A DNA stretch of 64,000 nucleotides from Parcubacteria group bacterium GW2011_GWA2_43_11 (lineage in GTDB: Bacteria; Patescibacteriota; Minisyncoccia; Phycocordibacterales; UBA12088). Below are positions 6,828 to 50,879 of this stretch, in pieces. Numbering within the stretch: position 1 is the stretch's first letter; each line of letters opens with the position of its first letter. The DNA lies in the NCBI GenBank assembly GCA_000998805.1, contig LCFC01000004.1, positions 2,446 through 66,445 of the forward strand. The letters run 5' to 3'. A program made the translations under genes and the position numbers. The notes under the pieces were generated by a model, which worked only from the letters and a program-made list of their open reading frames with translations, was not told the DNA's origin and searched no databases.

Positions 6828-7044
6828 GAACTAGGAACAAGGAACTTTTACCCTTCGACAAGCTCGGTACAGGGCGTACTTTCAACCCCAGTACCAAAGT
6901 CATGCGTGACTTGGTACGGGGCACGCTTTATGAACTCTATAACTTTTAACTTGTGCCCCCGCGGGGCGAGTTTGACATGAGCATTCCCTATGGTACTCTT
7001 TACGTATCTGAAATGTCCCTGAGGGGGCACTTTTTATTATAAAC

Positions 7045-7078
7045 AGTAGGACGTACACAAAAGGATGCAGTTCTAGAT
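7045..7078. repeat. Truncated MITE-family remnant (left end only) fused to the 5' end of nusA
   Basis: TAGGACgTACaCAAAaGGATGCAGTTCtAG matches the left end of the copies at 18362 and 21964 (…CAAACGGATGCAGTTC…). Confidence 0.5.
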
Positions 7079-8434: not shown

Positions 8435-8971
8435 ATGAATATATGGCACGACGTACCACTAGGTAAAAATGCTCCGGAGAGCATCAATACTATTATCGAA
8501 ATACCCAAGGGGTCATTTAACAAGTACGAGATTGACAAAGAAACAGGGCTTATAGCACTTGACCGTGCAAACTATACAGCTGCTCCGTATCCATTTGATT
8601 ATGGATTTGCTCCACAGACGTACTGGGAAGACAATGACCCTCTTGATGTCATAGTCCTCACCTCATTTCCCTTGAGTCCGGGGATTTTGGTCCGGGTACG
8701 TCCTGTTGCTGTACTTGATATGATAGATGACGGTGATTCAGACATGAAGGTAATAGCTGTACCTGCAGATGACAAACGATGGGATGATGTGAACGATCTT
8801 CAAGATTTAAACAAGCATGCGCTCAAGGAGTACGAACATTTTTTCCAGACGTATAAAAGCCTCAAAGGTAAACCAGCTCCTGTGGAAACTCGTGGGTACA
8901 AGGGAAGAAAAGAAACACTTGAGATAATCAACAGAAGCGTTGAACTGTACAAAGAAAAATTTGGCAAATAG
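8435..8971 (+). CDS. ppa: Inorganic pyrophosphatase (family I)
   Basis: MNIWHDVPLGKNAPESINTIIEIPKGSFNKYEID...DPLDVIV carries family I PPase signature residues. Confidence 0.85.
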   Translation: MNIWHDVPLGKNAPESINTIIEIPKGSFNKYEIDKETGLIALDRANYTAAPYPFDYGFAPQTYWEDNDPLDVIVLTSFPLSPGILVRVRPVAVLDMIDDGDSDMKVIAVPADDKRWDDVNDLQDLNKHALKEYEHFFQTYKSLKGKPAPVETRGYKGRKETLEIINRSVELYKEKFGK

Positions 8972-9092
8972 TAGTATCTACGGAAACGGCGCACCACAGA
9001 AGTATTTCATTTTTCTAATTCTCCGCCTTCGCCAGATGGCGAATGGCAAATCATAAGAAAAATTGGTCGCATCCGTTTGCGTAGATACTATA
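8972..9092. mobile_element. MITE-like element copy B (about 120 bp), terminal inverted repeats TAGTATCTACGGAAACGG / CCGTTTGCGTAGATACTA
   Basis: It starts immediately after the ppa TAG stop and shares an internal core with copy A. Confidence 0.7.
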
Positions 9093-13726: not shown

Positions 13727-13850
13727 TAGGACTTACGGAAACGGCGCACTTCTTCGTTGTCCTACGCAAAAGGTCACTTGTAGTATTGCTCATACAACTC
13801 GTTCCATTTTGCTTGGACGCCTTGAACTTTATTCGTTTGCGTAAGTCCTA
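13727..13850. mobile_element. MITE-like element copy C (about 124 bp), terminal inverted repeats TAGGACTTACGGAAACGG / CGTTTGCGTAAGTCCTA
   Basis: It follows the rpsG stop as taa-tag-TAGGAC… and shares its internal core with copy A. Confidence 0.75.
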
Positions 13851-14172
13851 AACAACACAAATCCTGCTAGGGCTTTTTTTTACTCGTATTAAACTACTTC
13901 AAACAATTCGCCGTCTTTCTTTCGAACTAGGAACTGTGAACTAGGAACAGGGAACATTTACGTCACTCGGTAACTCGCGACTCAGAACTCGGTAACTCGC
14001 TACTCATCTCCCGTTTGCGATTTCCCCAAATCTTATGTATAGTAATGCCACTTATAGCGACGCGCACTTTGCCTGTAATTCCAGAGCGTAGCGAATGAGA
14101 TTACAGTTGCAAGTGCGGTGATGCCCCCTGCAGGTACTGCGCGTTTTTTATTCATTAGTATCCTTTAACAGC

Positions 14173-18361: not shown

Positions 18362-18486
18362 TTAAGACTTTCGCAAACGGATGCAGTTCTAGGAAAACGA
18401 GCAAAATGGAGTGAGCTGTACAACGTCGTACAGTGAATGACGTTTTGTGAAGTTTGACAACGAAATGCGCCGTTTCCGTAAGTCCA
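18362..18486. mobile_element. MITE-like element copy D (about 125 bp, opposite orientation, degenerate left terminal repeat)
   Basis: …CGCAAACGGATGCAGTTC…AAATGCGCCGTTTCCGTAAGTCC; the internal core matches the copy at 21964. Confidence 0.65.
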
Positions 18487-21757: not shown

Positions 21758-21963
21758 CACGTTTTTAACACGTAACAATCTAAGACTTGGTTGGGACAAG
21801 ACAATCTCCCCTTATTGGCTCGCAACGTAGGGTTGCAACGAGCGTCCACTCTTAGTAAAAGGACCGTATTTATACGGGCCTTTTTGTTTTCATACAAAAT
21901 TTCAGGACTTACTCAAACAGACTGGAGGTTAAAACGTTTCTTGAGAAGAGACGGATTGTGGTT

Positions 21964-22087
21964 TAGGACTTATTCAAACGGATGCAGTTCAAGGAAAACG
22001 AGCAAAATGGAGTGAGCGGTACACGTCGTACCTTGAACGACATTTTGTGAAGTTTGACGCCGAAATGTGCCGTTTAAATAAGTCCTA
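21964..22087. mobile_element. MITE-like element copy E (about 124 bp), terminal inverted repeats TAGGACTTATTCAAACGG / CCGTTTAAATAAGTCCTA. Its last 3 nt (TAG on the minus strand) are the acd stop codon.
   Basis: The acd ORF ends …IMVK-TAG, where the TAG is the terminal TAGGAC of the element. Confidence 0.75.
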
Positions 22088-24124
22088 CTTCACCATGATA
22101 CGAGCATCAACAATCCGCGCACCTGTAGCGGTGGCAAAGACTGGATTGAAGTCTATTTCCTCAATCTCTTTGTGTTCCAATGAAAGCTTTGAAAGATAAG
22201 CGATAACTTCTGCGAGGGCTTGTAGGTCAACTGGTACACTCCCTCGTGCTCCAGTAAGTAATGGCAGTCCATGTATTTCTTGTATTTGTTTGAGCGCCTC
22301 CTCTACAGTGACGGGAGCTATGCGGATGGAAGAGTCTTTCAGTATTTCTACAAATATTCCTCCTAGTCCAAAGACTATCGTAGGACCAAAGATGGGGTCT
22401 CGCTTCATGCCCACTATACACTCCACACCTTTAATCATCGGCTGTATGAGCATACCGTCGATGATAGCACCTTCTGTGTGTTTTCCGACGTATGTTTCTA
22501 TATCGTCCCATGCATGTAACAGTGCTTCAGCGTTTGCGAGGCGAAGTTTGACAGCTTGCAAATCACTTTTGTGCACCAGTTGCATTGAGATTGCTTTCAT
22601 AGCATAGGGTCCTGTCCCAAGCTTCGTGATAGCTTTCGAAAGTTCTTCTTTATTTTTCACAAATACTCCTTCGAGACTCATGTCGTACTCTCGTAAAATA
22701 GCTTGCATACCCTCAAAGGAAAGCATGGAGAGGTGCGTTGAAAGACGAGGGGTGGGAGGTGTTGAGTCAGGCACTTTCGCCGAATGGCGCGCCAATGCAT
22801 CAAGCGACTCGACTGCGTCTGTTGGAGAATCAAAGCTCACCATACCAGCCTGCTTGAGTATGTCTATGCCCGCTTCTACCGTAGCACCACCCATAAAGAC
22901 TGGGATGATTGGTTTTTTAGCATGTTCTGAAATAAGTACCTCGGCAATTCCTGCAGGATCAGTCATCATCTGTGGAGTCACAAGGGCAATGATGATATCA
23001 ACCTCGGGTATGTCGCTCAAAATGTTAAGTACGTCTTTATACCTACTAGGGCCAGCATCACCTATTACGTCGACAGGGTTACCCACTGCTGCCATAGGAG
23101 GAAGGACGCTTCGAAGTGCTTCTTTGGTTTCATCAGAGAAGGTTACAAGTGAAAGTGAGTTTGAGAGTCCGATAAGGTCTGCGGTGTTTACAGATGGTCC
23201 TCCACCATTTGTAACAATTGCGATTCGTTGTAGCTCTTTTGTCGTGAGTCCGAGCTTCAATAGTTTGGAGAGAGAGAAGAGTGTGCGGAGCGAGTCCACA
23301 GGGATAGCGCCAACTTGTGCAAGCGCAGCCCCAAAGACTTTATCCGAAGGTGCGAGTGAGCCTGTGTGGCTTGCGACCGCAGCAGAGCCTCGTGTGCTTC
23401 TACCTGCTCGCAAGACAACGAGCGGTTTCTTTTTTGCAAGTCGTCGTGCAAGTTCAAGAAAACGTGGTCCATCACTCACTTTTTCAATATAGAGAAGCAC
23501 CGCTTTAGTGTCCTCATCATCTATAAGGTATTCCAAGAACTCAAGCTCAGTGAGAGATGCTTCATTGCCAAGGCTTACAAACTTGGAAAAACCAACGCCT
23601 TCTTTATTTGCCCAGTCTAATAGTGCGGTACCGAGTGCTCCTGATTGTGAGACAAAAGCAGTGCTACCTTTCGAAGGTTTACCAACTGCAAAGGACGCAT
23701 TCCAGTCTGCGTGTGCGTTCATAATACCGAGGCAATTGGGACCGAGGAGTGTGATGTCGTGCTTGTGTGCAATTTCGGCGATACCTTCCTCAAGCTTTTT
23801 ACCTCCTTCTCCCATTTCTTTAAAGCCTGCGGAAATAACAATAGCCGAATGTATACCTTTTTCTGCGCACTCTTCGAGTATTGAAGCAACGATATCAGCG
23901 CGTACCGCGATGACCGCAAGGTCTACGTCTCCGGGGATGATTTTGACTGATGTGTATGCCACATGACCAAACACTTCTGTCTCACTCAAGGTGACAGGGT
24001 ATACTTCTCGCACACTTCCCGCGAGAATGTTTTTCATGAGAGCATAGCCCACCTTTGATTCGTCATTAGTTGCACCGATTACAGCGACCTTGTTTGGGTT
24101 GAAAAGGGTATGTAAATTTATCAT
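22085..24124 (-). CDS. Acetate--CoA ligase (ADP-forming), fused alpha/beta subunits
   Basis: 679 aa with a CoA-binding N-terminus VAVIGATNDESKVGYALMKN, succinyl-CoA-synthetase-like folds, and an ATP-grasp C-terminal domain. Confidence 0.9.
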   Translation of the reverse strand: MINLHTLFNPNKVAVIGATNDESKVGYALMKNILAGSVREVYPVTLSETEVFGHVAYTSVKIIPGDVDLAVIAVRADIVASILEECAEKGIHSAIVISAGFKEMGEGGKKLEEGIAEIAHKHDITLLGPNCLGIMNAHADWNASFAVGKPSKGSTAFVSQSGALGTALLDWANKEGVGFSKFVSLGNEASLTELEFLEYLIDDEDTKAVLLYIEKVSDGPRFLELARRLAKKKPLVVLRAGRSTRGSAAVASHTGSLAPSDKVFGAALAQVGAIPVDSLRTLFSLSKLLKLGLTTKELQRIAIVTNGGGPSVNTADLIGLSNSLSLVTFSDETKEALRSVLPPMAAVGNPVDVIGDAGPSRYKDVLNILSDIPEVDIIIALVTPQMMTDPAGIAEVLISEHAKKPIIPVFMGGATVEAGIDILKQAGMVSFDSPTDAVESLDALARHSAKVPDSTPPTPRLSTHLSMLSFEGMQAILREYDMSLEGVFVKNKEELSKAITKLGTGPYAMKAISMQLVHKSDLQAVKLRLANAEALLHAWDDIETYVGKHTEGAIIDGMLIQPMIKGVECIVGMKRDPIFGPTIVFGLGGIFVEILKDSSIRIAPVTVEEALKQIQEIHGLPLLTGARGSVPVDLQALAEVIAYLSKLSLEHKEIEEIDFNPVFATATGARIVDARIMVK

Positions 24125-24217: not shown

Positions 24218-24517
24218 AAGGACTTACGCAAACACGGATGCGACCTAATTTTCAAGGAGCGCAGCGACTATGAAAATGAAAATGCCCTTGTGGTACAGCT
24301 CGACTTGTCCGCCGTAGCTTTTGCAGAGGTGGAAGCAAGTTTTTTTAGAAACTACGCCCCCATACTGAAGTCGTGCACGTTCCCGTATTACGTCAGGACT
24401 TACGCAAACGGATGAAGTTCAAGGCACCCAAGCAAAATAGAGCGAGTTGTATGAACAATACTACGAGAGATATTTTGTGCTGGGCAACGATGAAATACGC
24501 TGTTTGTGTATGTCCTA
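24218..24517. mobile_element. Two adjacent MITE-like copies, F1 at 24218–24394 and F2 at 24395–24517. The end of F2 provides the TAG stop of the downstream 2-oxoacid oxidoreductase beta gene.
   Basis: aAGGACTTACGCAAACacGG… and …CAGGACTTACGCAAACGG…CTGTTTGTGTATGTCCTA. The internal core of F2 matches copy A. Confidence 0.7.
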
Positions 24518-30331: not shown

Positions 30332-32887
30332 ATGAAACAAAAAGAATACTTAGAGTTGGAAAAAAGAACCTTTGAAATTCTCCGTCGGAGAGTCTTAACT
30401 GGTGAGTTTAAGTTTAAAAAAATATTCTTATTTCTCTGTTTTGTTATGGGAGGGTTTGTTTTTGGCGTGGGAGAAGCGAGTGCGGAAGGTATTTATATAA
30501 GTAATGCTGGTGCTGGTGATGGATCTTCTTGTGGCCAAGCTCGTTCTGTTTCATGGTTTAACGCCTCTGCTAATTGGGGTTCTGGGGATAATAAAATCAG
30601 CGATAACGATACCGTTTATTTGTGCGGAACTATAACAAGCAGTTCGTTGAGGATGGTTGCATATGGCTCTGTTGGAAATCCCTATACCATAACCTCAGCT
30701 CCTGGCCAAACAGCTATTATTGATGGTCAAAACATTCTCGATAGGGGAATTTCAGCCTACTCCTCTGGTAGCGGAGAGGTTATACTATCCAACTTAGAAA
30801 TACGCAATATTGCTGGTACTGGTATAGAAGCCAGACCCGGTGTGACAATGAAAATTGATAATGTGACTGTGAGAAACGTTTCTCAAAACTGTATAGGATT
30901 GAGTGGTAATGGTTCGTATGTTAAGAATTCAACTTTAATCGGATGTAAAAACAATGGAATAAATGGTGCCATGTTATCTAATGGACTTATTGATAACAAC
31001 ATCATTACCCTTTCAGGGACATATAATGACGGAATCACATTACACGATGGGACTGGTTCAAACAATGTTATATCAAACAACACTGTTTCTGGGGTAATAG
31101 AAGAAAATGCAATTGATATCCTACCTGGTTATTCCAATACCACTATATTTGGAAATGATCTTAGCGGAGCTACTCTTTATGTTATAGGAAGTGGTGGCGC
31201 AAATACTATTATTTACAGGAATTATATTCATGACTCTGCGAGAGGTGTATATCTAGCTGCTCCAGCGAGTGTGTATTATAACAAGCTAGTCAATTTGTCA
31301 GATGATACCTATGGTTCTGTGGGTGGTACAGGAGGACTCTACTTCACTACTGCTGATTCAAGTTTTGTGTATAACAATACCCTCGTGGAAGGTACTCAGG
31401 CTACAGGTAGAGCTATGGTGTACATAGATTCTGGGGTTGATAATGTGAAACTTAAAAATAATATTTTTGACGAGAATAAATTACAGACGACCATGTATAC
31501 GCTTGATAATCCGTCCATAGGCCTGCAAAGTGATTATAACAATTTCAACACGCCGCATACCAGATTAGTACAGAATGCGTCTACCGTCTATGCGAATCTT
31601 ACTGCCTGGAAAAATGCTGGATATGATGCAAAATCAATGTATGGTGAGCAATTGTTTTCAAATTTTAGTGCTAGGAATTTTAACCTTCTTCCAGGTTCTC
31701 CATTAATAGACGCCGGCACCTCTGTCGGTCTTACTACTGACTTTGCAGGTAATCCCATCTACGGTACTCCTGACATCGGTGCCTACGAATATCAACCCCC
31801 ACACACTATCGGAACTAGTAAAATAGACATTGGAGCTGGAGCAAGAATTTATGGAAACGGAAAATTTCGAGACATAGGAGCAACCAACTCTAATTTAGCT
31901 GATTTAACTATTACCCCTCAAAGCGGAAACTTCCAATCATTTGACACTGACGAAGTCCGTCCTGAATGGCTCGACGTCAAAAACATCACTTGGGAAGCAA
32001 CCACCAAACAATGGACCGAAAGCTCAAATAATTCAACTCTCACCAACACCCTCCACACTGTTGGAGACTTGGAGGCCAATAAATACTACAACGTTAGAGT
32101 AGATGGTACTTTAGGCTTGAAAATAACTGGAACCAACTGCACAGGTGGAATTTGCAAAGCAAACAGTAACGGAAAAATAGCGTTTACCTACACAGGAACA
32201 TACGGGGAGCATACCTTTAGAGTAGAATATGCTTATACTGCTATTCCTATTCCTACCGACACCACCGCTCCATCTGTACCATCTCTCACCGCAACCGCAG
32301 TCTCTTCTTCACAAATCAATCTCTCCTGGACTGCATCGACTGACAACGTCGGAGTAACAGGTTACAAGGTATACCGGAACGGTACATATCTAACAACAAC
32401 AACCTCCACTTCACACAACAGCACCGGTCTCACCGCTTCAACTGCCTACAGCTATCGAGTCTCTGCTGTCGACGCTGCCGGCAATGAATCCAGTCAATCT
32501 GTTGCAAAAAGTGCAACAACGCACGCAGGGACAGTGGAAACTGATGCGACACCACCTGCTGTACCATTGAATCTGATAACATTGGCAGTTTCTTCTTCAC
32601 AAATCAATCTCGCATGGACTGCTTCCACTGACAATGTCGGAGTAACAGGCTACAAGGTATACCGGAACGGTACTTACCTCACAACAACGACCTCCGCTTC
32701 GTATATCAATACCGGTCTCACAGCTTCGACCGCCTACAGTTATCGAGTCTCAGCTATCGACGCAGCAGGGAATGAGTCCAGTCAATCTACAGCGAAAAGT
32801 GCAACAACACAGGCAGGGACAGGAGGAACTGACACGACACCACCTGCGGCACCAACAGGATTTACTGCAGTGAGTGCGTCTGCGTAG
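30332..32887 (+). CDS. Cell-surface protein with a right-handed beta-helix (pectate-lyase-like) domain and tandem fibronectin type III repeats. It stops inside a third repeat.
   Basis: N-terminal TM anchor; NNIITLSGTYNDGITLHDGTGSNNVISNN beta-helix rungs; two Fn3 repeats (…SSSQINLSWTASTDNVGVTGYKVYRNGTYLTTTTS…). Confidence 0.75.
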   Translation: MKQKEYLELEKRTFEILRRRVLTGEFKFKKIFLFLCFVMGGFVFGVGEASAEGIYISNAGAGDGSSCGQARSVSWFNASANWGSGDNKISDNDTVYLCGTITSSSLRMVAYGSVGNPYTITSAPGQTAIIDGQNILDRGISAYSSGSGEVILSNLEIRNIAGTGIEARPGVTMKIDNVTVRNVSQNCIGLSGNGSYVKNSTLIGCKNNGINGAMLSNGLIDNNIITLSGTYNDGITLHDGTGSNNVISNNTVSGVIEENAIDILPGYSNTTIFGNDLSGATLYVIGSGGANTIIYRNYIHDSARGVYLAAPASVYYNKLVNLSDDTYGSVGGTGGLYFTTADSSFVYNNTLVEGTQATGRAMVYIDSGVDNVKLKNNIFDENKLQTTMYTLDNPSIGLQSDYNNFNTPHTRLVQNASTVYANLTAWKNAGYDAKSMYGEQLFSNFSARNFNLLPGSPLIDAGTSVGLTTDFAGNPIYGTPDIGAYEYQPPHTIGTSKIDIGAGARIYGNGKFRDIGATNSNLADLTITPQSGNFQSFDTDEVRPEWLDVKNITWEATTKQWTESSNNSTLTNTLHTVGDLEANKYYNVRVDGTLGLKITGTNCTGGICKANSNGKIAFTYTGTYGEHTFRVEYAYTAIPIPTDTTAPSVPSLTATAVSSSQINLSWTASTDNVGVTGYKVYRNGTYLTTTTSTSHNSTGLTASTAYSYRVSAVDAAGNESSQSVAKSATTHAGTVETDATPPAVPLNLITLAVSSSQINLAWTASTDNVGVTGYKVYRNGTYLTTTTSASYINTGLTASTAYSYRVSAIDAAGNESSQSTAKSATTQAGTGGTDTTPPAAPTGFTAVSASA
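32262..32830 (+). repeat. Tandem direct repeat of approximately 285 nt (2 units about 88% identical, plus the start of a third) encoding the Fn3 repeats
   Basis: Unit 1 at 32262–32546, unit 2 at 32547–32830, partial unit 3 at 32831–32884 ending in TAG. Confidence 0.8.
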
Positions 32888-33067: not shown

Positions 33068-33571
33068 ATGACCATAGAAAATAAAATTAAAATAGGGTGG
33101 TTTGTGTTTTCCTGTTCGGAAGACAACACCATACTCTTTACTGAGCTTCTAAACGACCATTGGCAGGAATGGAAAAAGATTTTTGATTTCCGTCACGTAA
33201 AAGTCCTTAAAAAGAATAACATTTACGACGAATTTGATATTGCGTTTATTGAGGGAGCTATCGCAAGCCCTGAGCACGAAGAAAAGCTTAAAGACATCAG
33301 GAGTCGTAGTAAAAAAGTGGTAGCGGTGGGAGCATGTGCAGTGACGGGAGTGCCAGCAAGTCAGCGCAATACCTTTACCCCCGAGCAAAAAGAAGCGATA
33401 CAATTTCTCGTTGACCGTTTTGGCGCACTTCCCGAAGTAAAGAAAGTGGCGGATGTTGTGACGGTAGATGCTTCAGTCCCTGGATGCCCGATGAATGCTG
33501 ACATGTTTTTGAAAGCGGTGAACGGACTTGTGGCAGAGCTTCGGCCCGAGCTTGCTCAAGCACAATCTTAA
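33068..33571 (+). CDS. [NiFe]-hydrogenase small-subunit-like protein (group 3-type, short), with an atypical proximal cluster motif
   Basis: IKIGWFVFSCSED… (SCSE instead of CxxC), VAVGACAVTG, VPGCP. Confidence 0.65.
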   Translation: MTIENKIKIGWFVFSCSEDNTILFTELLNDHWQEWKKIFDFRHVKVLKKNNIYDEFDIAFIEGAIASPEHEEKLKDIRSRSKKVVAVGACAVTGVPASQRNTFTPEQKEAIQFLVDRFGALPEVKKVADVVTVDASVPGCPMNADMFLKAVNGLVAELRPELAQAQS

Positions 33572-33601
33572 CTATTACGAATTAAAATTCTACTACCGGG
33601 T

Positions 33602-35107
33602 ATGCACATGATAAACATAGAGCTGGAACACATCACTAAGATAGAAGGTGACGCGTCTATCAGTATCACTGTCGAAGATGGGAAGGCGACCAAGGTCCAC
33701 TTCATAACTGAAGAATACAAACGTTTCTTTACGGAAGCTCTGAAAGGTAAAAGTATTCTAGCGGTACCATCACACCTCTCACGCATCTGCGGTACGTGTT
33801 CAAACGCGCATGTGCTCGCTGCTATTGAAGCATGCGAGATGGCACTTGATATACAGCCTACCAAGCAAACAATGATGCTTCGCGCTCTTACCCTGCATGG
33901 ACTCACAATTCGCGACCATGCACTCCACCTCTACCTGTTCTGTATGCCGGACATCTATGGGAAGGATGCGTTTCTCGACTTTGATGAAAACGACCCCCAT
34001 GAGAACCAATTGCTACATGATGCGTTTGCGATAAAGAGCGCGGGGAACTTCCTCGCTACTATCATTGCAGGGAGGTCAATTCACGCGATGTTTCCGGCTA
34101 TTGGAGGCTTTATTAAGTATCCGGATGCCGAACAGGTCGCGCAAGCAATAGAAAAACTTGAAAGTGTACGCGAGGCTACGGTACGACTTGTCGCGGAGTT
34201 TGAGAAATGCACGTTTGCCTTTGACCGACATACCGACTACATGGCACTTTTGCCTGACGAAGGGTATGGATATATTAATGGCAGAATACGTACGAGTAAG
34301 GGTGAGGTGTATGACGAGAAGCTCTACCGTGAGCTTGTCGAGCACGTGGTATTGCCATACTCGCAAGCGAGCGCGTATCAGTACAAAGGAGACTCCTATA
34401 TGGTGGGTGCACTTGCTCGTATGAACATAGCTCGGGATAAGCTACATCCAAAGACGAAAGAATCGTGTCAATCCGCACTTGCACTGTTTCCCTCAACAAA
34501 CATTTTTCACAACAACTTGGCTCAGGCAATAGAAATTATGCATTCGGTTGATGAGAGTATCGACCTTCTTAAAAACAACCCTATAGTACAAGAAGATTTG
34601 GTTAAGATGCCATATCGAGAAGCCACAGGTATTGGGGTTATTGAGGCTCCTCGTGGAGCGCTCTACCATAAGATTCATGTAGGGGCGGACGGCAAGATAA
34701 TGGATGGAGAAGTCATCGTACCTACAGGGCAAAACCAGATAAATATTGAAGAGGACTGCGGACGACTCGTCGAAGATCTCGTGGCAAAAGGGGTGACTGA
34801 CGTGGAGGCGATAACTTTCGAGCTCGAAAAGCTCATCCGTGCCTATGACCCCTGTATGTCCTGCGCCGCAGCGCCAAATCGTGAAGAGCGAAACGAATTC
34901 TCAGAAGAACAACAAGAGATTATTGAAATGTATCAACAAGAGTTGCGAGACCTTGAAACGTGGAGAAATGAGCTTCTTCAGAAATGTGAAGCAAACGAGC
35001 GTGATGGAAAAGATTGTAATGCGCTACGGCAAGTAATAGAAGATGAGTATTTTGAAAAAGAATTGGAATTACGTCAAAGAGCCCACTATGCGGAGCACTC
35101 CGTATAG
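33602..35107 (+). CDS. [NiFe]-hydrogenase large-subunit-like protein with an unusual approximately 80-aa charged C-terminal extension
   Basis: N-terminal L1 motif RICGTCSNAH; C-terminal DPCMSCAAA (the L2 motif lacks the usual His/Arg), then APNREERNEF…HYAEHSV. Confidence 0.8.
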   Translation: MHMINIELEHITKIEGDASISITVEDGKATKVHFITEEYKRFFTEALKGKSILAVPSHLSRICGTCSNAHVLAAIEACEMALDIQPTKQTMMLRALTLHGLTIRDHALHLYLFCMPDIYGKDAFLDFDENDPHENQLLHDAFAIKSAGNFLATIIAGRSIHAMFPAIGGFIKYPDAEQVAQAIEKLESVREATVRLVAEFEKCTFAFDRHTDYMALLPDEGYGYINGRIRTSKGEVYDEKLYRELVEHVVLPYSQASAYQYKGDSYMVGALARMNIARDKLHPKTKESCQSALALFPSTNIFHNNLAQAIEIMHSVDESIDLLKNNPIVQEDLVKMPYREATGIGVIEAPRGALYHKIHVGADGKIMDGEVIVPTGQNQINIEEDCGRLVEDLVAKGVTDVEAITFELEKLIRAYDPCMSCAAAPNREERNEFSEEQQEIIEMYQQELRDLETWRNELLQKCEANERDGKDCNALRQVIEDEYFEKELELRQRAHYAEHSV

Positions 35108-35190
35108 TTGATTCAGTTCTATACTGAAGTCCTCTTAATTATAGCGAAATCCTTGATATGTCATGATAGGTTGGATGATTAAAAATAAGA

Positions 35191-35216
35191 ACAAGCCCCT
35201 TGTGAGAGGGGCTTGT
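35191..35216. terminator. Bidirectional terminator hairpin between convergent genes (ACAAGCCCCTTGTGAGAGGGGCTTGT)
   Basis: Perfect stem followed by GTCTGTTTTGTTT. Confidence 0.55.
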
Positions 35217-35227
35217 GTCTGTTTTGT

Positions 35228-35608
35228 TTAAGAGACTTCTTCCGGGAAGCTCCAAGCATCCGGACATTTGCAGAGGTCAAGATTCCAAAGATCATCTTCA
35301 CTGTGATCATGCGGGCATGCTTCCATACTTACGATTTTTCGACATACGTAACACTGCCAAAAGTACTCGACCGTACCTTCAGCGCAACCGAGCATTCTTT
35401 TCACCTCCTCATCAGGTAGCTGTTTCTTGTTTTTTCCGTCACCGAGCCATACTACGAGTCGATGATTCGGGTGAGGTGTGTACTCCTCCCACGGACGCAC
35501 TTCGGCGAATTCCTTCCGAAAAATTTCGGGCGGATTGTCTGTTGCATAAGTGCAAGATTTGCATGACTTGCATTCGGGAATCAGCAGGAAAGCGATAAGT
35601 TTAGACAT
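35228..35608 (-). CDS. Cysteine-rich small protein (10 Cys), hypothetical metal-binding
   Basis: ECKSCKSCTY…GCAEG…QCYVCRK…ACPHDH…CKCPD. Confidence 0.5.
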   Translation of the reverse strand: MSKLIAFLLIPECKSCKSCTYATDNPPEIFRKEFAEVRPWEEYTPHPNHRLVVWLGDGKNKKQLPDEEVKRMLGCAEGTVEYFWQCYVCRKIVSMEACPHDHSEDDLWNLDLCKCPDAWSFPEEVS

Positions 35609-35836
35609 TTTCTCCTCCAGGGTTTACTTAAACTAAATAAGTGCTTCAGTGAACACTCAGCCTGCAAGGTACTATACACTAAATTTTAAATAATACTAGA
35701 ATTAATTCTAGTATTATTTCTGAAAACAGATTGCTTGAGTTTATAAAAATTATATATTTTGATACAAGGTGATGTGTATTTATAACAAAAGGCAGAGCAA
35801 GTAAACTTTAGCTCTGCCCTAATCTTGCGAATACAG

Positions 35837-36253
35837 TTAGATATTCGATTTCCAATAACCACTCTCGTCTAACGCTTCCATGTACTCAGGGAAATCTATT
35901 GCAAATTTTTTATCTATTCTTGTTAAAGCAACGCATTGCCATGCAACACCTAAGAAACAGCAACTAATTGGAACAGTGAGCAGGAAAGATATACTTTCAA
36001 ATCTGAGTAGAAAGTAAGCGCCTACTAGGAGTGACAGAAGAGCTAAAACAAAACCCGTTCCCACTCTTAGGTCGCCAATGCTATCCCTGTATTCTTGATG
36101 GCACTTTTCTGCTGCCCTAACTTCTACGTCGCAAAATTTTCGCCCTATGAGCTCCATTGCTCCACATTCAGGACATTTTTTACGAACTGCTTCACCGCAT
36201 TCACTGCAGAAATTTCCAAGTTGTCCTTTGTGTTTACATGTATCAGTATTCAT
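35837..36253 (-). CDS. Zinc-ribbon membrane protein (N-terminal CxxC…CxxC, two TM helices)
   Basis: CKHKGQLGNFCSECGEAVRKKCPECG followed by hydrophobic segments. Confidence 0.55.
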   Translation of the reverse strand: MNTDTCKHKGQLGNFCSECGEAVRKKCPECGAMELIGRKFCDVEVRAAEKCHQEYRDSIGDLRVGTGFVLALLSLLVGAYFLLRFESISFLLTVPISCCFLGVAWQCVALTRIDKKFAIDFPEYMEALDESGYWKSNI

Positions 36254-36275
36254 TTTACCCCTCCATTTGGTATTT

Positions 36276-36412
36276 TTGACAAACAGCCATCTATGTATCT
36301 GTCATGCAAGATAGCGTTACATGTTACTTTGTCAATCAATATAATTGAAGTTTTGCCTTATTTTGGCTTAATATAGCAACTTTCCAATTTGATTTGTCAA
36401 ATATATTGACAG
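36276..36412. promoter_or_regulatory. Divergent control region with repeated TGACA/TGTCA half-sites, including a near-palindrome TTGTCAAATATATTGACAG
   Basis: Half-sites start at 36276, 36303, 36330 and 36390–36409. It sits immediately upstream of the TrmB-like regulator. Confidence 0.35.
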
Positions 36413-36439
36413 AATTATTGTTCATAGTACCATGAACTC

Positions 36440-37186
36440 ATGGACAAAGGACTTGAAAAGCTTCTGGAGGAAGTGGGTTTTACTCAAAAAGAAGCAAAAG
36501 TATATTTGGCTCTTTTAGAACTCAATATAGGCAATGTGAAAGAAATTGCCAGAATCACACAACTGAAAAGACCCATAATTTATGTAATTTTGGAAGGACT
36601 CATTAAAAGGGGGTATGCCAGTGAATCCCTGGAAACAAAAATAAACATCTATCAACCTACTGATCCTTCAGTAATACTGAACAAGCTGCGGAACAACTAT
36701 AAAAATTTTCATGAAATGCTTCCCATCTTTCGCTCGCTGGGGAATCGAGGTAAGAAGCGTCCGAAGATTACCTATCACGAAACTAAGGAAGGTATTGTTA
36801 GTGTTTGGGAAGATATGAATAATTTTCAAGATGTCTTTCTTATTTCCTCCTATCGAAGAATAGAGGATCATTTTCCAGGACTTCTTGATAAGTGGCTTCA
36901 TGAGATGAAAAAGGGGATTATAAATCCAGGCTTTCGTCAGCTTGTCTCAGACAACCCATTTAATATTCGTCTTGCTAAGAAGTTTATGTTTAGCAAAAAT
37001 CAGAGAGTACGTTTTTTGCCTGAACTGCGCAATTCTCACATGGATTTCGCCATTTTTGGAAATAAATTAGCCATCACATCCCTTGGTGAAGATCCATTTA
37101 TTGTGGCTATCGAATCAGAAGAATTGGTTCATTCCATAAAACCACTTTTTGAGCTGGCGTGGAAAAACGGGGAGCGTATTAAATAA
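36440..37186 (+). CDS. TrmB-family transcriptional regulator (N-terminal wHTH)
   Basis: LGFTQKEAKVYLALLELNIGNVKEIARITQLKRPIIYVILEGLIKRGY matches the TrmB N-terminal signature. Confidence 0.7.
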   Translation: MDKGLEKLLEEVGFTQKEAKVYLALLELNIGNVKEIARITQLKRPIIYVILEGLIKRGYASESLETKINIYQPTDPSVILNKLRNNYKNFHEMLPIFRSLGNRGKKRPKITYHETKEGIVSVWEDMNNFQDVFLISSYRRIEDHFPGLLDKWLHEMKKGIINPGFRQLVSDNPFNIRLAKKFMFSKNQRVRFLPELRNSHMDFAIFGNKLAITSLGEDPFIVAIESEELVHSIKPLFELAWKNGERIK

Positions 37187-37381
37187 CATGTGGTAGTAGA
37201 TTTATATTTTTTATACTGGAACCACTACTATTATCACGTGCATACGGAAACAATAATCTCGAATTTTGAAATCTCATCCGTGTACCCTTGTATGTCCTAT
37301 GCCGCGCACTTCCTGTAATAATGATACCGTCACACAAAGGCTGTGTGACGGTATTTTACTACTCTGGATTTTTCTACTCGT

Positions 37382-37789
37382 TCAACTTTCCACGTCCGTA
37401 GACATGGGATTGAGTTGTATTAGAGACCCTTCATCTACAAGCCAGTCCATGGCCACAGAGACAAACTTTTTAACAAGCTCGTTGTCTCCTGTGTTACTGC
37501 GCATTTCAATAGGGCGACCATCCTCGTAGAAATAAAGACCTATGGTGAAAGTTTGTCCTTTGGTGCGTCTCGGTTTGGTCTTTTTTTCCATGCTTTTGTG
37601 CTGCTGTATCCAGCGCGCAAGAGGCCAAAAGATGTCTAACCTGTTGTCAATTTCTGAAATACTGTTTTTTTCGATACACAGGTTGGATTTTACTTCTATG
37701 TTCTTTGGTGTGGTGCCGTCTCTCTCACACGAAACGTGAAGGAATATCGTGGTGTCTGCGGGTTTCGGTTGGATTCTCCAGTTTATCAT
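37382..37789 (-). CDS. Hypothetical protein
   Basis: 135-aa ORF. Confidence 0.45.
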   Translation of the reverse strand: MINWRIQPKPADTTIFLHVSCERDGTTPKNIEVKSNLCIEKNSISEIDNRLDIFWPLARWIQQHKSMEKKTKPRRTKGQTFTIGLYFYEDGRPIEMRSNTGDNELVKKFVSVAMDWLVDEGSLIQLNPMSTDVES

Positions 37790-37897
37790 TTCTTCACCTC
37801 TCTTGTGTTTGGAAAGCCAGTATCTTTCAGTGTATGTACCTATTTTCGATTGTACATGAGAAAAAAAAGAACACTAGTATACATACTATAATTAATA

Positions 37898-38284
37898 CTA
37901 GTATTCTATTGTTTGAGCTGTTTTTATGGCTTCAGTAAGGTCTGGAATGAGTCTATCTTCAGGTATACCTACTGGTATACCGATGATGTAAGTTGAATCT
38001 ATCTTGTCGAGTTTCTTGAGGAACTGCAGGTTGGTGTAGGCGTCGAAATCATGGCAGGTGACACGAGGAGTTTTGCTAAAGGCCTCGAGATTTTCAAATA
38101 CGGTAACCTTTTCTATTCCAATCACGGTGTCGATGATGATCATATCCTTTTCCACTCCCCATTCTTCGTTTGGGTCGAGTACGATAAAGGTGACTTCAGG
38201 AAACAATTCTCTCAGCTTCGGCAGAAGTCGTATGGGAAGTGAGTCCATTTCTATGTCAGGGTTACCAAAAATGTATACATGCAT
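37898..38284 (-). CDS. Hydrogenase maturation endopeptidase-like protein (HycI/HybD fold candidate)
   Basis: MHVYIFGNPDIEMDSLP…IIIDTVIG…CHDFDAY has acidic and His residues spaced like HybD E16/D62/H93. Confidence 0.5.
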   Translation of the reverse strand: MHVYIFGNPDIEMDSLPIRLLPKLRELFPEVTFIVLDPNEEWGVEKDMIIIDTVIGIEKVTVFENLEAFSKTPRVTCHDFDAYTNLQFLKKLDKIDSTYIIGIPVGIPEDRLIPDLTEAIKTAQTIEY

Positions 38285-38353
38285 AAATGCTAGTGTACAG
38301 ATAAAGCGCCGAGAGCAAAAGCAATCGGCGCTCTATAAAGAAAGGAAGAGCGG

Positions 38354-38896
38354 CTATAGCGGAAAATCCAGCGGGACAAGCTCGGCGATTTCGAAGTTGT
38401 GCACGAAAACTTTTATCCCAACCTCGACAGGGTATCCAAGGTGGTTGAAAATAACCACGGAAGGATTTTGTGGAAAGCGTGAACCAATCACCTTACCTCG
38501 ATGAAGAACATTTTTACCTTCTAGTTCCAGATCGGTCACTTCTACGAGAAAAACAGGTGTTTCTCCTTCTTGCACGTGTTGGTGTTCACTTTCCCAGTAG
38601 TAGTACATCTCTTCGATGGTGGGTTCCCGGCCATAGCGCGTTTCAAGGATTAAAAATGGTCGCGGAATAAATTTTCTGATGAATTCGTCACTTGGAAAAC
38701 GACCATACTCGATGATTGTTTTGAGTATGGGGTTATTCTCAAGCGGAAAATTCCTTTTCATGTTGTGCACGCAGGTAAAACCGTACAGTGCACATACTTG
38801 AGAGGGAGTTTCAGGAATGGGGACAGTGTGAATGAGTGTTGCTGGTTGGAAAACAGGGTCGGTATTGCATCGGGTGTCTGCTGAGTGAAGTATCAT
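38354..38896 (-). CDS. Hypothetical protein (180 aa), part of a four-gene minus-strand operon
   Basis: A 69-nt gap separates it from the upstream gene; no recognised motif. Confidence 0.5.
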   Translation of the reverse strand: MILHSADTRCNTDPVFQPATLIHTVPIPETPSQVCALYGFTCVHNMKRNFPLENNPILKTIIEYGRFPSDEFIRKFIPRPFLILETRYGREPTIEEMYYYWESEHQHVQEGETPVFLVEVTDLELEGKNVLHRGKVIGSRFPQNPSVVIFNHLGYPVEVGIKVFVHNFEIAELVPLDFPL

Positions 38897-38964
38897 AATT
38901 CCTCCTTTGACGTTTTTCTTTTCCTACAGGTATTTTCTTTTGTTATTATGTGGATATGTCTTGC

Positions 38965-39690
38965 TTAGTCAAGGTTTGCTATTTGTATAGCTTTCAATGT
39001 GTGGAATTTGAGCTGTTCTATTATTTTCTCAGTGAGTACCTCGCAAGGGATATCCCAATGAAGTGTAATGAATTGTCCAGGCTGTAGCATCTCGATGTCA
39101 TATTCAGCCTCAAGCCTACGCACTATCTTTTTTTCTATCGGTGCTCCAAGGAAAAACTTGTTGTTTAGAATCTGAAGTGGTTCATAAAGTAATGTGATGT
39201 TTGGACCACTCACTTCAATGACCTTGCCCCAGCTAATACGGCAGGAATCAATTGCGTTAATGGTTGCACTATCTGGAGAGCCCATTTTTTTTGGCACAGC
39301 AAGAACATGGTAGTTGTGATTGGGAAGAATACCTTTACTGATACGGTCTTCCAAAACTCGAAAAGTTTTTATAGGGAGCTTATCTTTCAGTCGCAAATCA
39401 TCAATAAAGTATTGATGTAGAGTGTTTTTATCCACACCGCTAAGGAGTTCATTGCCTATCCAGTACGCCTCGACGACGCGTGGGTCAAACGGGTCAGGTA
39501 TGTGGTTGCTCCGAGCTATGCGGTCAAGGTACGGGTACAGTGTTTCAAATCCTCGTAGAAGTTTTTGCAGACCAAAGTCGGTAAAGCCGTCGTTGAGGTA
39601 GTCCCAAATTTCTCTGTTTGCATCTGGGCCACAAAAGTGAAGCCTATTTGGCCCAAACGCATAGCGACTACAACGAAGTACTCCGTCCAT
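38965..39690 (-). CDS. Hypothetical protein (241 aa from the ATG at 39690; the ORF is open to a GTG at 39744). Its first 14 codons are duplicated at 41064–41104.
   Basis: MDGVLRCSRYAFGPNRLHFCGPD…. Confidence 0.55.
   Translation of the reverse strand: MDGVLRCSRYAFGPNRLHFCGPDANREIWDYLNDGFTDFGLQKLLRGFETLYPYLDRIARSNHIPDPFDPRVVEAYWIGNELLSGVDKNTLHQYFIDDLRLKDKLPIKTFRVLEDRISKGILPNHNYHVLAVPKKMGSPDSATINAIDSCRISWGKVIEVSGPNITLLYEPLQILNNKFFLGAPIEKKIVRRLEAEYDIEMLQPGQFITLHWDIPCEVLTEKIIEQLKFHTLKAIQIANLD
39650..39690. repeat. 41-bp direct repeat, copy 1 (GGCCCAAACGCATAGCGACTACAACGAAGTACTCCGTCCAT), which is the reverse complement of the first 41 nt of the 38965 gene
   Basis: Identical except for 1 nt to 41064–41104. 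Confidence 0.85.
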
Positions 39691-39753
39691 GATGTGAAGT
39701 ATACACAGTTTACTTAGAGAATGTGCGAACAAAATGACACACACATATTTTTA

Positions 39754-40971
39754 TTATTCAGTTGAACTTAGAATGTGTTGAATTTTTTCCCAACAATCTG
39801 AAGGTGTTGTTACTATCGAATGGATACGTTTTTTAATTATATTGTGTGCGTACTTTCTTTGTTTTGGGGTCAATGGAAGTGTCTTTCTGGTTGATGTTAG
39901 TAACATACTTTTCAATGTAGCAATTTCACCCTCACTATATTTGCCAAAATCAATTTTCTTTAGTTCCTCTTCGCTTAATATTTCTTTTAATCTTTTCCCT
40001 ATCATTAAAATATATCTAATATTTTTTATGGTATTTTCGGTTTCCTGTTGGGATCTTTCTCCTTCAAACTTAATGAGAGAATCATTAACAACTATTTCTA
40101 AAGTTGATTTTGCAGGAACATTGAAATCGCTACAGTATTTTTCAAAATCACGGGCAAGAGTATTACGTATATACGTATTAATTCGAAGTAATCTATTTTC
40201 TGTTATTTTTTTCTCACCTTTTTCGTATGAGCCATTATCAATATTTTTTATAATCTCAGAGATGTCAGCCCATGCATCTTTCCCCTGTTGATCAGACCGT
40301 AAGGCTTCTACATAATCCTTTTCTTCCAAAAGGATTTTTGTTGGATCATCTTCACACTTTTTTATTCTATCGTGAATTATGAGAACTTCTTCTTTTGAGA
40401 GCTTATCTATATTGAAACCAGGTAGTATAGAAGTGATGTATTCTATTTGTTCACGAGCATCCTCCATTCCTTCAACATCTTCTTCCAATAAACGTAGTGA
40501 TGTAAAAGATAGGTTAGAAAAAGTTTCATATCGATTTGAAATATCGGCTTCACTAAGTTTGTTTTCATAGTAGTCTCTCATTACTATTTCTTTAGGCATT
40601 TCGCCTTGTTGTTCACTCGCTTCTATAGTTGCGTCGCCTTGATCTTTTTGAAGTTCTTCGGTGTCACCGTTTTCAGCTTGAGAATCATTGGTACTAAAAA
40701 GATCTTTTTGAGCTTCAAGAGAAAGAATATTTCCTGATAAAGTGTGAATTTTATTGATATCCTTGTTTATAAACGCGTCGTCAAGTAGTTCTTTCGTGTA
40801 CGATATTCTGTCTTCAAGTAGCTCGCACACTTGTTCATTTGTTAAATCTAGTCGCAAACTATTCTCTTTTTCGCTATAGACGTACGAAGCATTTCTGCGT
40901 AGTAGTTCGGCGTCCGACAACACTCTTTCTCTTTGCATATCAACAATTTCCTGTATTTTTTCACCTTCCAT
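39754..40971 (-). CDS. Acidic, predicted alpha-helical hypothetical protein (405 aa) in an AT-rich cassette
   Basis: No TM helix and no recognised motif. Local GC is well below that of the flanks. Confidence 0.55.
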   Translation of the reverse strand: MEGEKIQEIVDMQRERVLSDAELLRRNASYVYSEKENSLRLDLTNEQVCELLEDRISYTKELLDDAFINKDINKIHTLSGNILSLEAQKDLFSTNDSQAENGDTEELQKDQGDATIEASEQQGEMPKEIVMRDYYENKLSEADISNRYETFSNLSFTSLRLLEEDVEGMEDAREQIEYITSILPGFNIDKLSKEEVLIIHDRIKKCEDDPTKILLEEKDYVEALRSDQQGKDAWADISEIIKNIDNGSYEKGEKKITENRLLRINTYIRNTLARDFEKYCSDFNVPAKSTLEIVVNDSLIKFEGERSQQETENTIKNIRYILMIGKRLKEILSEEELKKIDFGKYSEGEIATLKSMLLTSTRKTLPLTPKQRKYAHNIIKKRIHSIVTTPSDCWEKIQHILSSTE

Positions 40972-41063
40972 ATTTTTATAATTAATTTATATCCTTAAAT
41001 GAATAGTACCATGAAGAAATCAATAAAATGTACTCAAAGAGAAGTGGATATTTATATGACGTA

Positions 41064-41104
41064 GGCCCAAACGCATAGCGACTACAACGAAGTATTCCGT
41101 CCAT
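41064..41104. repeat. 41-bp direct repeat, copy 2, located 3 nt downstream of the transporter stop. It starts a 41-codon remnant ORF (MDGILRCSRYAFGPTSYKYPLL…).
   Basis: One mismatch relative to 39650–39690. Confidence 0.85.
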
Positions 41105-41107
41105 ACG

Positions 41108-42031
41108 TTATCCAGTGACGGCTATCTTTGAAGTGGTAATAGTCCCTGAATGCCTCATAAAAAAGATGATACAGGTGGTGCCAAGTATCATGAGAAAACC
41201 AGAGAGCGCTTGAGTTTCAGTAAGTGTACCTGTTATGAAAACAGCGGTAAGAATATTAGTAACGAGTGTAGCGGGTACGAGAAGTGTAGCAACGTATGCC
41301 ACAGGTGCGTATTTCAGTGCAGAATACCACGTGACGACATAGCCAAGTAAAAAGATACCAGTAAGTGCTGTCCATAGGGTACTTATCGAGGTCATGTCAC
41401 CTAAACCTGACAAGCGCCCGGTCACCGCAAGAAAAATACCTAAGAATATTGAACCAAATAGCATTCGTCCACTCGCAACGATATGTACAGAAAGTTCACC
41501 TAACATTTTCTTAGCAAGAAGGTGTTCAACCGCCCAGAAAAGTGTTGCACTAAAGACAAGTAGCTCCCCCGTACTTCCTGTAAACCCTCCAAAGCCACCA
41601 ATGACAAGATTCGAAGCAAAGAGTAAAGAAACCCCTAACCATTGTAATGGAGAGAGTTGTTCACGTAGAAAAAATATAGCAAGAAGCGCAACCCAAATAA
41701 ACAGTGTTTTGTGTATCATTGCTCCGTTAATGGCAGGAATCATATTTAGTCCTGTAAAGAAGAGTCCAAAAGGTATCGCTCCGCCTATAAGACCGATAAG
41801 CACCAACTGCCCCCATTGTTTTTTTGAAATAGTACCTAGCTCCTCTTTTTTTGAGTACGCGAGGACAATACCAACCAAACATAATGCAACCATTGTATTT
41901 TTTAACCCAGCAAATAGGATAGGGTCTTGCAAAGAAGTAGCTGCAAATTTGTTAATAAAAATCGACACACCAGAAATACAAGCGGCGCTCAACGCAAGAA
42001 CGGTAGGATTTTTATAGAGTGATAGTTTCAT
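41108..42031 (-). CDS. EamA/DMT-superfamily transporter (10 TM helices)
   Basis: From MKLSLYKNPTVLALSAACISG; two EamA-like halves. The ORF is open to 42127. Confidence 0.75.
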   Translation of the reverse strand: MKLSLYKNPTVLALSAACISGVSIFINKFAATSLQDPILFAGLKNTMVALCLVGIVLAYSKKEELGTISKKQWGQLVLIGLIGGAIPFGLFFTGLNMIPAINGAMIHKTLFIWVALLAIFFLREQLSPLQWLGVSLLFASNLVIGGFGGFTGSTGELLVFSATLFWAVEHLLAKKMLGELSVHIVASGRMLFGSIFLGIFLAVTGRLSGLGDMTSISTLWTALTGIFLLGYVVTWYSALKYAPVAYVATLLVPATLVTNILTAVFITGTLTETQALSGFLMILGTTCIIFFMRHSGTITTSKIAVTG

Positions 42032-46557: not shown

Positions 46558-46737
46558 GAGAGTTAGTGTGCGGCCTGCCCTGTACCGAGCTTACCCCGTA
46601 TTTCCTGTGTATAGTGTTTGGGTACAATACTTTCTGAAAAAAATAAAGGTTTTATTGCGTTACGTAGCAAAAAAACCTTTTAAGTTTTGTTTACGTAATA
46701 AATACATAAAAACAATAAAATACGCTATTTTTCGCAG

Positions 46738-46905
46738 GGTTGACCCGGTAGTGAAAATTGACGATGCATTTCATGCGCTACATCTAGAGGATTTAGCCTC
46801 GTCAATTTCTACTACCGGGTTGACCCTGTAGTAGAAGTTTACGATGCATTTCATGCGCTCAACCCTTGGTTTGAGCCTCGTAAACTTTCACTACAGGGTT
46901 GACTT
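46738..46905. repeat. Two tandem approximately 70-nt hairpin units (arms GGTAGTGAAAATTGACGA / TCGTCAATTTCTACTACC), each followed by GGGTTGAC
   Basis: Unit 1 at 46747–46816, unit 2 at 46826–46896; a third copy is at 50560–50628. Confidence 0.7.
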
Positions 46906-50299: not shown

Positions 50300-50559
50300 T
50301 AACGAATTGCTGAAGTGAAGTGCGTCAGATTATCTTCTATCCACCTAACACAGTTTTTCCCTAAGGTGATAGGGTGGTCTGGCATACTCAGACGTTCAGT
50401 GTTTGATAAAAAATCGAGGCCAACAACCTTCGCTTTCGCTACTAGCAGCCTCCTTCTCTGATTCGCGGGCACCCACTTCAGCAATATGAAGTACATGTTT
50501 GTTACTAAACCTAGAGTATCAGAACATTTTTGTAAGTCAATTTATTGGTGTGTCATACC

Positions 50560-50628
50560 CAGTAGTGAAAATTGACGAAGCTCGACCTGTGGTCGAGCGC
50601 ACAAAGTGCATCGTCAATTTCTACTACG
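50560..50628. repeat. Third copy of the approximately 70-nt hairpin repeat (AGTAGTGAAAATTGACGA…TCGTCAATTTCTACTAC) with a different internal loop
   Basis: Arms identical to the units at 46747 and 46826; the loop has its own sub-hairpin CTCGACCTGTGGTCGAG. Confidence 0.7.
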
Positions 50629-50879
50629 GGGTTGCATTTTTTAACCCATTCCTGTATAGTACCGAGGCTAATAGAAGTATCGTAAGGTACTAGCCATGTT
50701 CCACCGACAGCAATGATAGGGAACCTCTGGACCGTAAGCCTCACTGGCTAGTGGTTCAGTGTAGGCCTTTTTTGTTAGCAAGGTCTTTAAAAACAGCGCA
50801 CTTCATCGTTGTGCTGCACAAAATACTTCTCATCGTATAATTTAATACGACTCGCAGTATTTTGTTTGCACGCCTCGAA

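Follow-up and report, generated by a model that had tools for sequence, protein, structure and literature searches.

A stretch of 64,000 nucleotides from Parcubacteria group bacterium GW2011_GWA2_43_11 (contig LCFC01000004.1; the whole stretch is called the window here) contains a short gene cassette which separates two genes of an operon and is bracketed by a 41-bp direct repeat. The minus strand encodes the genes of this locus. In the operon, the upstream gene codes for an EamA-family transporter (41108–42031; called with 307 amino acids, PF00892, E = 1.1e-30; a longer start is possible with an ATG at 42127). The downstream gene (38965–39690; 241 amino acids, PF19927, E = 6.4e-49) belongs to the DUF6390 family. 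It is intact and was the target of the insertion. In the direction of transcription the order is as follows: the EamA stop at 41108, 3 nt, repeat copy 2 with an ATG at 41104, 92 nt, an open reading frame (ORF) of 405 amino acids, 63 nt, and finally repeat copy 1, with which the DUF6390 gene starts.

The repeat, GGCCCAAACGCATAGCGACTACAACGAAGTA(C/T)TCCGTCCAT, is located at 39650–39690 (copy 1) and 41064–41104 (copy 2), exactly where an earlier note on this DNA had placed it. A scan of the window retrieved the pair, and the number of matches expected in shuffled sequence was 0.00. The copies are identical in 40 of 41 positions with a single C/T mismatch, contain a perfect block of 31 nt, and their similarity breaks off sharply at both edges. 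Further copies with up to three mismatches were absent from the window; the repeat is not a generic, genome-wide motif. Copy 1, which is attR-like, comprises on the minus strand the ATG and the first 41 nt of the DUF6390 gene and is the functional start. Copy 2, which is attL-like, begins 3 nt past the EamA stop and occupies the ancestral position of the DUF6390 start. This geometry had been read correctly from the letters alone; the 241-residue gene and the transporter of that reading are now identified as a full-length DUF6390 member and as EamA (PF00892). The copies differ only by a G>A change (Val4>Ile), which is derived and belongs to copy 2, the non-functional one; the outgroup contigs L006, L012 and L014 have G (L-numbers denote contigs and P-numbers proteins used in the comparisons).

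Copy 2 opens a chimeric remnant ORF (40982–41104) in which 14 DUF6390 codons are continued by 26 codons read from the insert. The product is MDGILRCSRYAFGP+TSYKYPLLFEYILLISSWYYSFKDIN. The remnant described in the earlier note thus exists; its length is 40 codons and not 41. It stops 10 nt upstream of the ATG of the 405-residue gene, and gene callers report it as a gene of 40 amino acids in L001–L003.

The insert proper is 1,373 bp long (39691–41063); its limits are given by alignment to related genomes which lack it. It consists of a 5' leader of 92 nt (40972–41063), the cargo gene (39754–40971), which has the orientation of the operon and encodes an acidic, predicted helical ORFan, and a 3' spacer of 63 nt (39691–39753). 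Its composition is foreign. The GC content is 32.6% compared with a window mean of 43.1% (s.d. 2.6; all 1,373-bp stretches), and it is the lowest-GC stretch of this length in the window. In the ORF the GC content at third codon positions is 24.6% vs 31–50% in neighbouring genes. This bears out the marked AT-richness claimed before.

A scan for promoters and terminators in the region yielded nothing above chance: no terminator was predicted, and promoter-like sites were not more numerous than expected from shuffles. One such site, TCAACA-17-AATAAT (39753–39781, minus strand), falls into the 3'-terminal part of the cassette gene and precedes the re-created start of DUF6390; a role for it would be speculative. 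Because a terminator is not predicted and the orientation is that of the operon, the cassette is probably co-transcribed with it. Judged by its spacing, the start of the remnant is positioned for translational coupling to EamA. With this coupled start kept, the remnant ORF may feed ribosomes to the cassette gene. The DUF6390 gene is intact but would be without its former coupled context.

The nearest DUF6390 proteins are 87–91% identical and come from related Parcubacteria of the same groundwater sample series and aquifer (contigs L006–L012). These contigs have a neighbourhood in common, i.e. SufB, EamA, DUF6390, small ORFs, TrmB and a NiFe hydrogenase. In all of them the site is empty: the EamA stop is followed by 3 nt and the DUF6390 ATG, and the 41-mer is present once. 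Both copies in the window align to this single 41-mer. When the relatives' contigs were compared by BLAST, the alignment reached the end of copy 2 and restarted at the ATG of copy 1. Because the alignments stop and resume at the edges of the repeat, the ancestral state is EamA, 3 nt, DUF6390. The event is an insertion of 1,373 bp after nucleotide 41 of the DUF6390 gene with duplication of nucleotides 1–41. The insertion, its exact boundaries and the duplication are observed directly. The uninterrupted, single-copy site in relatives from the same aquifer demonstrates that this is a genuine and precisely bounded insertion with target duplication, and it upholds the central claim of the earlier note, a foreign cassette which entered the start of the downstream gene and duplicated the start region. 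The cassette is a presence/absence difference between this strain and its relatives.

The arrangement was found on at least 10 contigs of the strain, taken from NCBI, JGI, ENA and Logan assemblies of several groundwater samples. Junctions were identical in all of them and carried the same mismatch. One carrier comes from MEGAHIT and bears the name k127; k-mers of this length (127) span more than the repeat. Because independent assemblies concur and k127 exceeds the repeat, a misassembly is excluded. Presence/absence polymorphism within the strain was not visible among these contigs. The NCBI annotation of the cassette product reads hypothetical protein, with Parcubacteria group bacterium GW2011_GWA2_43_11 as its organism.

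The co-occurring relatives L006, L007 and L008 were compared from −1100 to +3000 around the DUF6390 ATG. L006 and L007 are 100% identical from −125 onward and 63–85% identical in most of EamA upstream of it. L006 and L008 are identical except for a patch with 63–81% identity from +206 to +720 inside DUF6390. The stretch from −125 to +205, with the 41-mer in it, is common to all three. The breakpoints of this mosaic (−126, +206/+720) flank the conserved junction; therefore, DNA exchange at the locus is active.

The DUF6390 match is full-length, aligned from position 4 of the Pfam profile, and the protein is 91% identical to P0002 over its whole length. Its N-terminus, MDG(V/I)LRCSRYAFGPNRLH, is almost invariant across Parcubacteria (120 homologues). 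P0054, a homologue which seemed to lack the N-terminus, was dismissed as a start-codon miscall. The gene is consistently linked with an ORFan of 150–186 amino acids, a HycI-like protease and a NiFe hydrogenase (37898–39690 and 33083–34869 in the window, and also in relatives); the match to a HycI-like hydrogenase maturation protease is weak (Pfam E = 0.006). Because of this linkage DUF6390 may have a hydrogenase-related role.

The 405-residue ORF is a real coding sequence, as the chance of such a frame remaining open is about 1e-15. The computed properties are those of an acidic (pI 4.85), soluble protein. It has no significant match in Pfam, NCBIfam, PHROGs and PADLOC (the best was AbiV with 14 bits), and nothing significant was found among PDB sequences, INPHARED phages (tblastn) and IMG/VR. 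Its description as acidic and devoid of known motifs is thus correct. The alpha-helical prediction fared less clearly: a single-sequence AlphaFold model is all-helical, but of low confidence (pLDDT 40.5). A word-indexed search of 5.8 billion proteins returned only the protein itself. An exhaustive HMMER search of 1.84 billion representatives detected one weak relative, P0122 (residues 7–81, E = 8e-6), with a common stretch of 42 residues at 45% identity. A profile built from this N-terminal motif added one more relative, P0123. P0122 matches the phage family phrog_8369 (E = 1e-10), and the gene of P0123 sits amid toxin-antitoxin and transposase genes. These contexts are weak hints of a mobile-element origin. 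As an aside, P0122 itself (L013, QLUJ01000620.1, 21–1073) consists of a unit of about 175 amino acids duplicated perfectly in tandem.

The insert was then inspected for signatures of known mobile elements. The window contains it once. Its termini showed neither inverted nor direct repeats beyond chance (the best alignment of the 80-nt ends scored 9; shuffle mean 9.2). An attC-like hairpin was absent; DNA folds of the cassette ends and the repeat had z-scores of +0.29, +0.48, +0.07 and −0.90 against shuffles. Neither an integron integrase nor attI nor a cassette array was present at the locus or in the neighbouring genes, and there is a single insert only. Transposase and Cas1 were absent, and the window contained no Rfam match.

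EamA is located upstream of DUF6390 in 70 loci. In two of them another gene lies in between, and there the start is not duplicated. L044 (CAYLHB010000017.1, 5242–6365) has a secreted-looking ORF of 209 amino acids on the opposite strand between EamA and DUF6390. L022 (CAZRDN010000061.1, 3688–4428) has a gene for a membrane protein of 241 amino acids at this place, bracketed by an 11-nt direct repeat, TGCTGATAACA; for that comparison the chance is about 0.003. The EamA/DUF6390 junction may be a recurrent spot of gene gain.

What kind of event created this arrangement? The best reading, which we put forward tentatively and hold to be somewhat short of an even chance, is a non-autonomous integrative islet without integrase in the manner of a cis-mobilizable element (CIME), with the repeats acting as attL and attR. 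A circular, AT-rich foreign DNA with one gene would have entered the chromosome by recombination within the first 41 bp of DUF6390. As element and target would have had a 41-bp core in common, the integrated element would be flanked by two copies, the equivalents of attL and attR. The downstream copy would supply DUF6390 with a complete start, and for this reason the resident gene would survive. The upstream copy would remain 3 nt behind the EamA stop and open the 40-codon leader ORF ending 10 nt before the cassette ATG. By virtue of the coupled leader, the common orientation and the lack of a predicted terminator the cassette would be plugged into an existing operon. The recombinase would necessarily have acted in trans or have been lost, unless recombination over short homology was used. 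The circular intermediate and the recombinase are what we infer, as are co-transcription and translational coupling. The attP junction predicted from this reading is …GTATACTTCACATC + 41-mer + TACGTCATATAAAT… (abbreviated …CACATC + 41-mer + TACGTC…), and the predicted strain-matched attB is …CACTGGATAACGT + 41-mer + AAATAGGCTTCAC….

Several points argue for the integrative islet. The empty site has one 41-mer, the insert has the lowest GC in the window, and its cargo is an ORFan with two weak relatives, one of which matches a phage family while the other is located among toxin-antitoxin and transposase genes. By analogy with known systems, the start of the repeat exactly at the target ATG would be a hallmark of att sites which reconstitute a gene end. 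Equally by analogy, a target near-invariant in Parcubacteria would be typical of site-specific elements, and 41 bp is within the range of 8–60 bp of the att repeats of tyrosine recombinases. Precedents also exist for islets between direct repeats which have no recombinase of their own, namely wzy and H47 (see below).

Other results weigh against this reading. A recombinase was not seen in the insert, among the Pfam-annotated neighbours within ±10 kb or in the other ORFs of the 64-kb window, so that the element as it stands is devoid of one. Because the repeat encodes an N-terminus which hardly varies among the 120 homologues, re-use of the site could be searched for; a degenerate 41-mer pattern was used to look for a 41-mer followed by sequence other than DUF6390. 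As a positive control, 69 loci from species-representative genomes matched the pattern with one copy each. A second copy or a remnant junction was not found in any of these 69 genomes, i.e. the site is not re-used there, and in viral contigs the 41-mer was absent. Metagenome contigs with at least 120 single-match loci contained no remnant junction either, yet this negative is weak because known carrier contigs were not returned and the sensitivity of the metagenome scan is unverified. Contigs of the strain which encode exactly the EamA, DUF6390 or remnant-ORF product were all of the integrated form; neither an empty site nor a circular junction was among them. With 1.37 kb the insert is very small for a decayed integrative element which has kept both ends. 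Finally, the four to five synonymous variants which distinguish the lineage of the strain from L006/L012 are present in both copies. This is more simply explained by a duplication of resident sequence than by an imported core.

The main rival is a one-off illegitimate insertion with target duplication, for which a recombinase is not needed. We consider it somewhat unlikely, and nearly as likely as the integrative islet. In a template-switch form, of the type of break-induced replication mediated by microhomology (MMBIR) or fork stalling and template switching (FoSTeS), the nascent strand would leave DUF6390 at +41, copy 1.37 kb of foreign DNA from a phage, a plasmid or taken-up DNA, and return at the ATG. 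Alternatively, a staggered break would be filled in around a captured fragment. A duplication of exactly 41 bp would be seen because only duplications which reach the ATG keep DUF6390 functional, and the shortest viable one survives. This would account for the lineage's own synonymous variants in both copies and for a sole difference which is derived and located in the non-functional copy. It is also in line with an insert which has no recombinase, terminal inverted repeats or attC, and with a unique event, as remnants were found neither in the 69 genomes nor in contigs, and viral contigs had no attP-like site. The MMBIR template-switch model reportedly predicts templated insertions flanked by duplications. 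On the other hand, the cassette has no homologue in the collections with which its junctions could be compared for microhomology; the exact coincidence with the ATG requires the selection argument; and gene conversion between the copies could equally explain their identity. To our knowledge, there is little documentation from bacteria of templated insertions on the kilobase scale with duplicated flanks, which also counts against it. An origin by tandem duplication and subsequent deletion was ruled out because a second copy of the insert is missing from the window. The mosaics around the junction in L006, L007 and L008 would suit yet another route, import by homologous or homology-facilitated recombination from a close relative which already had the cassette beside DUF6390, with the conserved start as an anchor. 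The origin of the duplication would then be moved to an earlier genome. We rate this as improbable: neither the cassette nor a homologue of its gene is present in any other sampled lineage, and a double-crossover replacement does not by itself create a duplication.

The remaining alternatives have very little probability. A transposon, insertion sequence or miniature inverted-repeat transposable element (MITE) inserted by a transposase that duplicates the target site, or a Cas1 integrase of the casposon type, would explain why the flanking direct repeats derive from target sequence. Known target-site duplications have about 2–15 bp, and 41 bp is far longer. Terminal inverted repeats, a transposase and Cas1 are all missing, the window contains the insert only once, and relatives of its gene are not found elsewhere; this explanation is largely refuted and can be given only slight credence. 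The likeness to integrons proposed in the earlier note did not survive. A single promoter-poor ORF oriented as its neighbours is what an integron cassette acquired by attC x attI recombination would look like; however, its ends have no attC-like hairpin or site, IntI, attI and an array are missing, and a flanking 41-bp duplication is neither a feature of integrons nor a product of their recombination. We regard it as refuted. Just as negligible is an assembly artefact generated by a repeated 31–41-mer. Both ends of a Logan contig of 1,443 bp (L005) fall inside the repeat, as would result from branching of a k=31 graph, but the junctions on the at least 10 contigs from NCBI, JGI and ENA and from several samples, one of them k127, are identical. 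Transposon, integron and artefact were thus rejected by direct tests. More generally, members of the Candidate Phyla Radiation (CPR), such as Parcubacteria, may have an unrecognised route of single-gene gain in which a cassette enters a conserved gene start and tens of bases are duplicated. The cassette would inherit a coupled leader, the resident start would be kept, the gain would be reversible by loop-out, and a recombinase encoded by the element would not be needed. We see hardly more than an outside chance for this notion.

A few further observations concern the neighbourhood and the rest of the window. Gene order from 35182 to 37883 was compared with L006–L012. A gene of 135 amino acids (37382–37789) lies between a HycI-like gene and TrmB here, and after a DZR gene in L006–L010; L012 is without TrmB, DZR and the 135-residue gene. 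Cupin_2 and CBU_0592 genes are located beside the hydrogenase in relatives and are absent in the strain of the window. The 135- and 126-residue neighbours were considered as paralogous flanks of a larger insertion and ruled out because they are unrelated. In L001–L004, which are of the same strain, 104 and 112 extra bases (no Ns) are present at the positions 34869 and 49488/49489 of the window, respectively. The 104-nt piece missing at 34869 comprises intergenic DNA and the beginnings of two divergent genes and is bounded by the 5-nt repeat GGCGC. Its lack results in a chimeric ORF of 501 amino acids (33602–35107) which fuses the large subunit of the NiFe hydrogenase to a neighbouring gene. 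The missing bases are probably a collapsed scaffold gap in the source of the window, otherwise a deletion variant.

Intergenic imperfect palindromes of about 125 nt with the ends GGACTTACG…CGTAAGTCC occur between housekeeping genes in both orientations, at 3179–3277, 13729–13851 and 50791–50879 (plus strand) and at 18362–18485, 21957–22089 and 24395–24517 (minus strand); partial copies are located at 7034–7076 and 8967–9072. The alignment of the six copies folds as one long hairpin of 39 pairs, nine of which have compensatory double changes. The family could be a MITE- or REP-like element (repetitive extragenic palindrome) or a structured RNA. None of its copies lies at the cassette. Two tandem copies of 270 nt, 85% identical and spaced by 288 nt, are present at 32297–32854 in a large gene for a beta-helix/fn3 surface protein. 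Repeats of 27–43 nt occur twice in tandem at 46737–46901, between the genes for the Suf ATPase and EF-Tu, and recur at 50551–50634 upstream of a ribosomal-protein operon.

At this locus a natural gain of a gene by a CPR bacterium is cleanly resolved, and the same aquifer provides the states before and after. A foreign ORFan came to lie in a tight operon whose two genes had a spacing of only 3 nt, and the downstream gene was not destroyed. Should the repeats be functional att sites, the islet would be a rare integrative element of Patescibacteria which targets the 5' end of a gene, and it would point to a helper recombinase. Should it be a one-off insertion with duplication, it would be a case in which an organism with a minimal repertoire of repair functions acquired a gene horizontally by way of replication or repair. 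Either way, the repeats make the gain potentially reversible, since a precise loop-out could occur; a loop-out product was not observed among the contigs of the strain. This is a single event of a broadly known kind, and with one instance its scientific reach is limited.

How does the locus compare with known systems? As in integron cassettes, a single ORF in the orientation of transcription would depend on upstream expression signals; unlike them it is without attC, IntI, attI and array, and its flanks are a 41-bp duplication of host coding sequence. With a templated insertion by MMBIR it shares that it is non-recurrent, that resident sequence is duplicated at the insertion point and that machinery encoded by an element is absent. 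That model was reportedly developed for human copy-number variation. The wzy locus of Salmonella Typhimurium is a single-gene islet without recombinase which has direct repeats of 113 bp, excises as a circle and re-inserts (PMC12074656). Here too a single gene in an element without recombinase is flanked by repeats, and relatives have an empty site with one repeat. The wzy repeats are 113 bp long, perfect and intergenic, whereas those described here have 41 bp and constitute the coding start of the downstream gene. Further, excision and reversion of wzy were shown experimentally and the islet is polymorphic within its clade; the present insert is fixed in the strain, and its contigs contain no excision product. 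The H47 genomic island of E. coli, 13 kb with long imperfect repeats, does not encode a recombinase, and its RecA-independent excision was shown experimentally (PMC5426353). Flanking direct repeats and the lack of an encoded recombinase are common to both; yet the islet has only 1.37 kb and its repeats are of 41 bp.

The closest formal parallel to the integrative islet is provided by elements which use tyrosine recombinases. These are flanked by direct repeats of 8–60 bp and integrate at the 3' end, more rarely at the 5' end, of a gene; one repeat holds the gene end and the gene is preserved (PMC5704250). CIMEs are decayed derivatives with attL and attR and without integrase (Guedon et al., 2017; PMC5704250). 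Differences are evident. The locus described here has only 1.37 kb and a single ORFan, a helper integrase or an autonomous relative is not known, re-use of the site was not found in the other genomes examined, and the host belongs to the Parcubacteria (CPR) and is neither a Firmicute nor a Proteobacterium. What it has in common with CIMEs and with decayed integrative mobilizable or conjugative elements (IMEs, ICEs) is foreign DNA without integration genes, flanked by short repeats, at the conserved end of a target gene.

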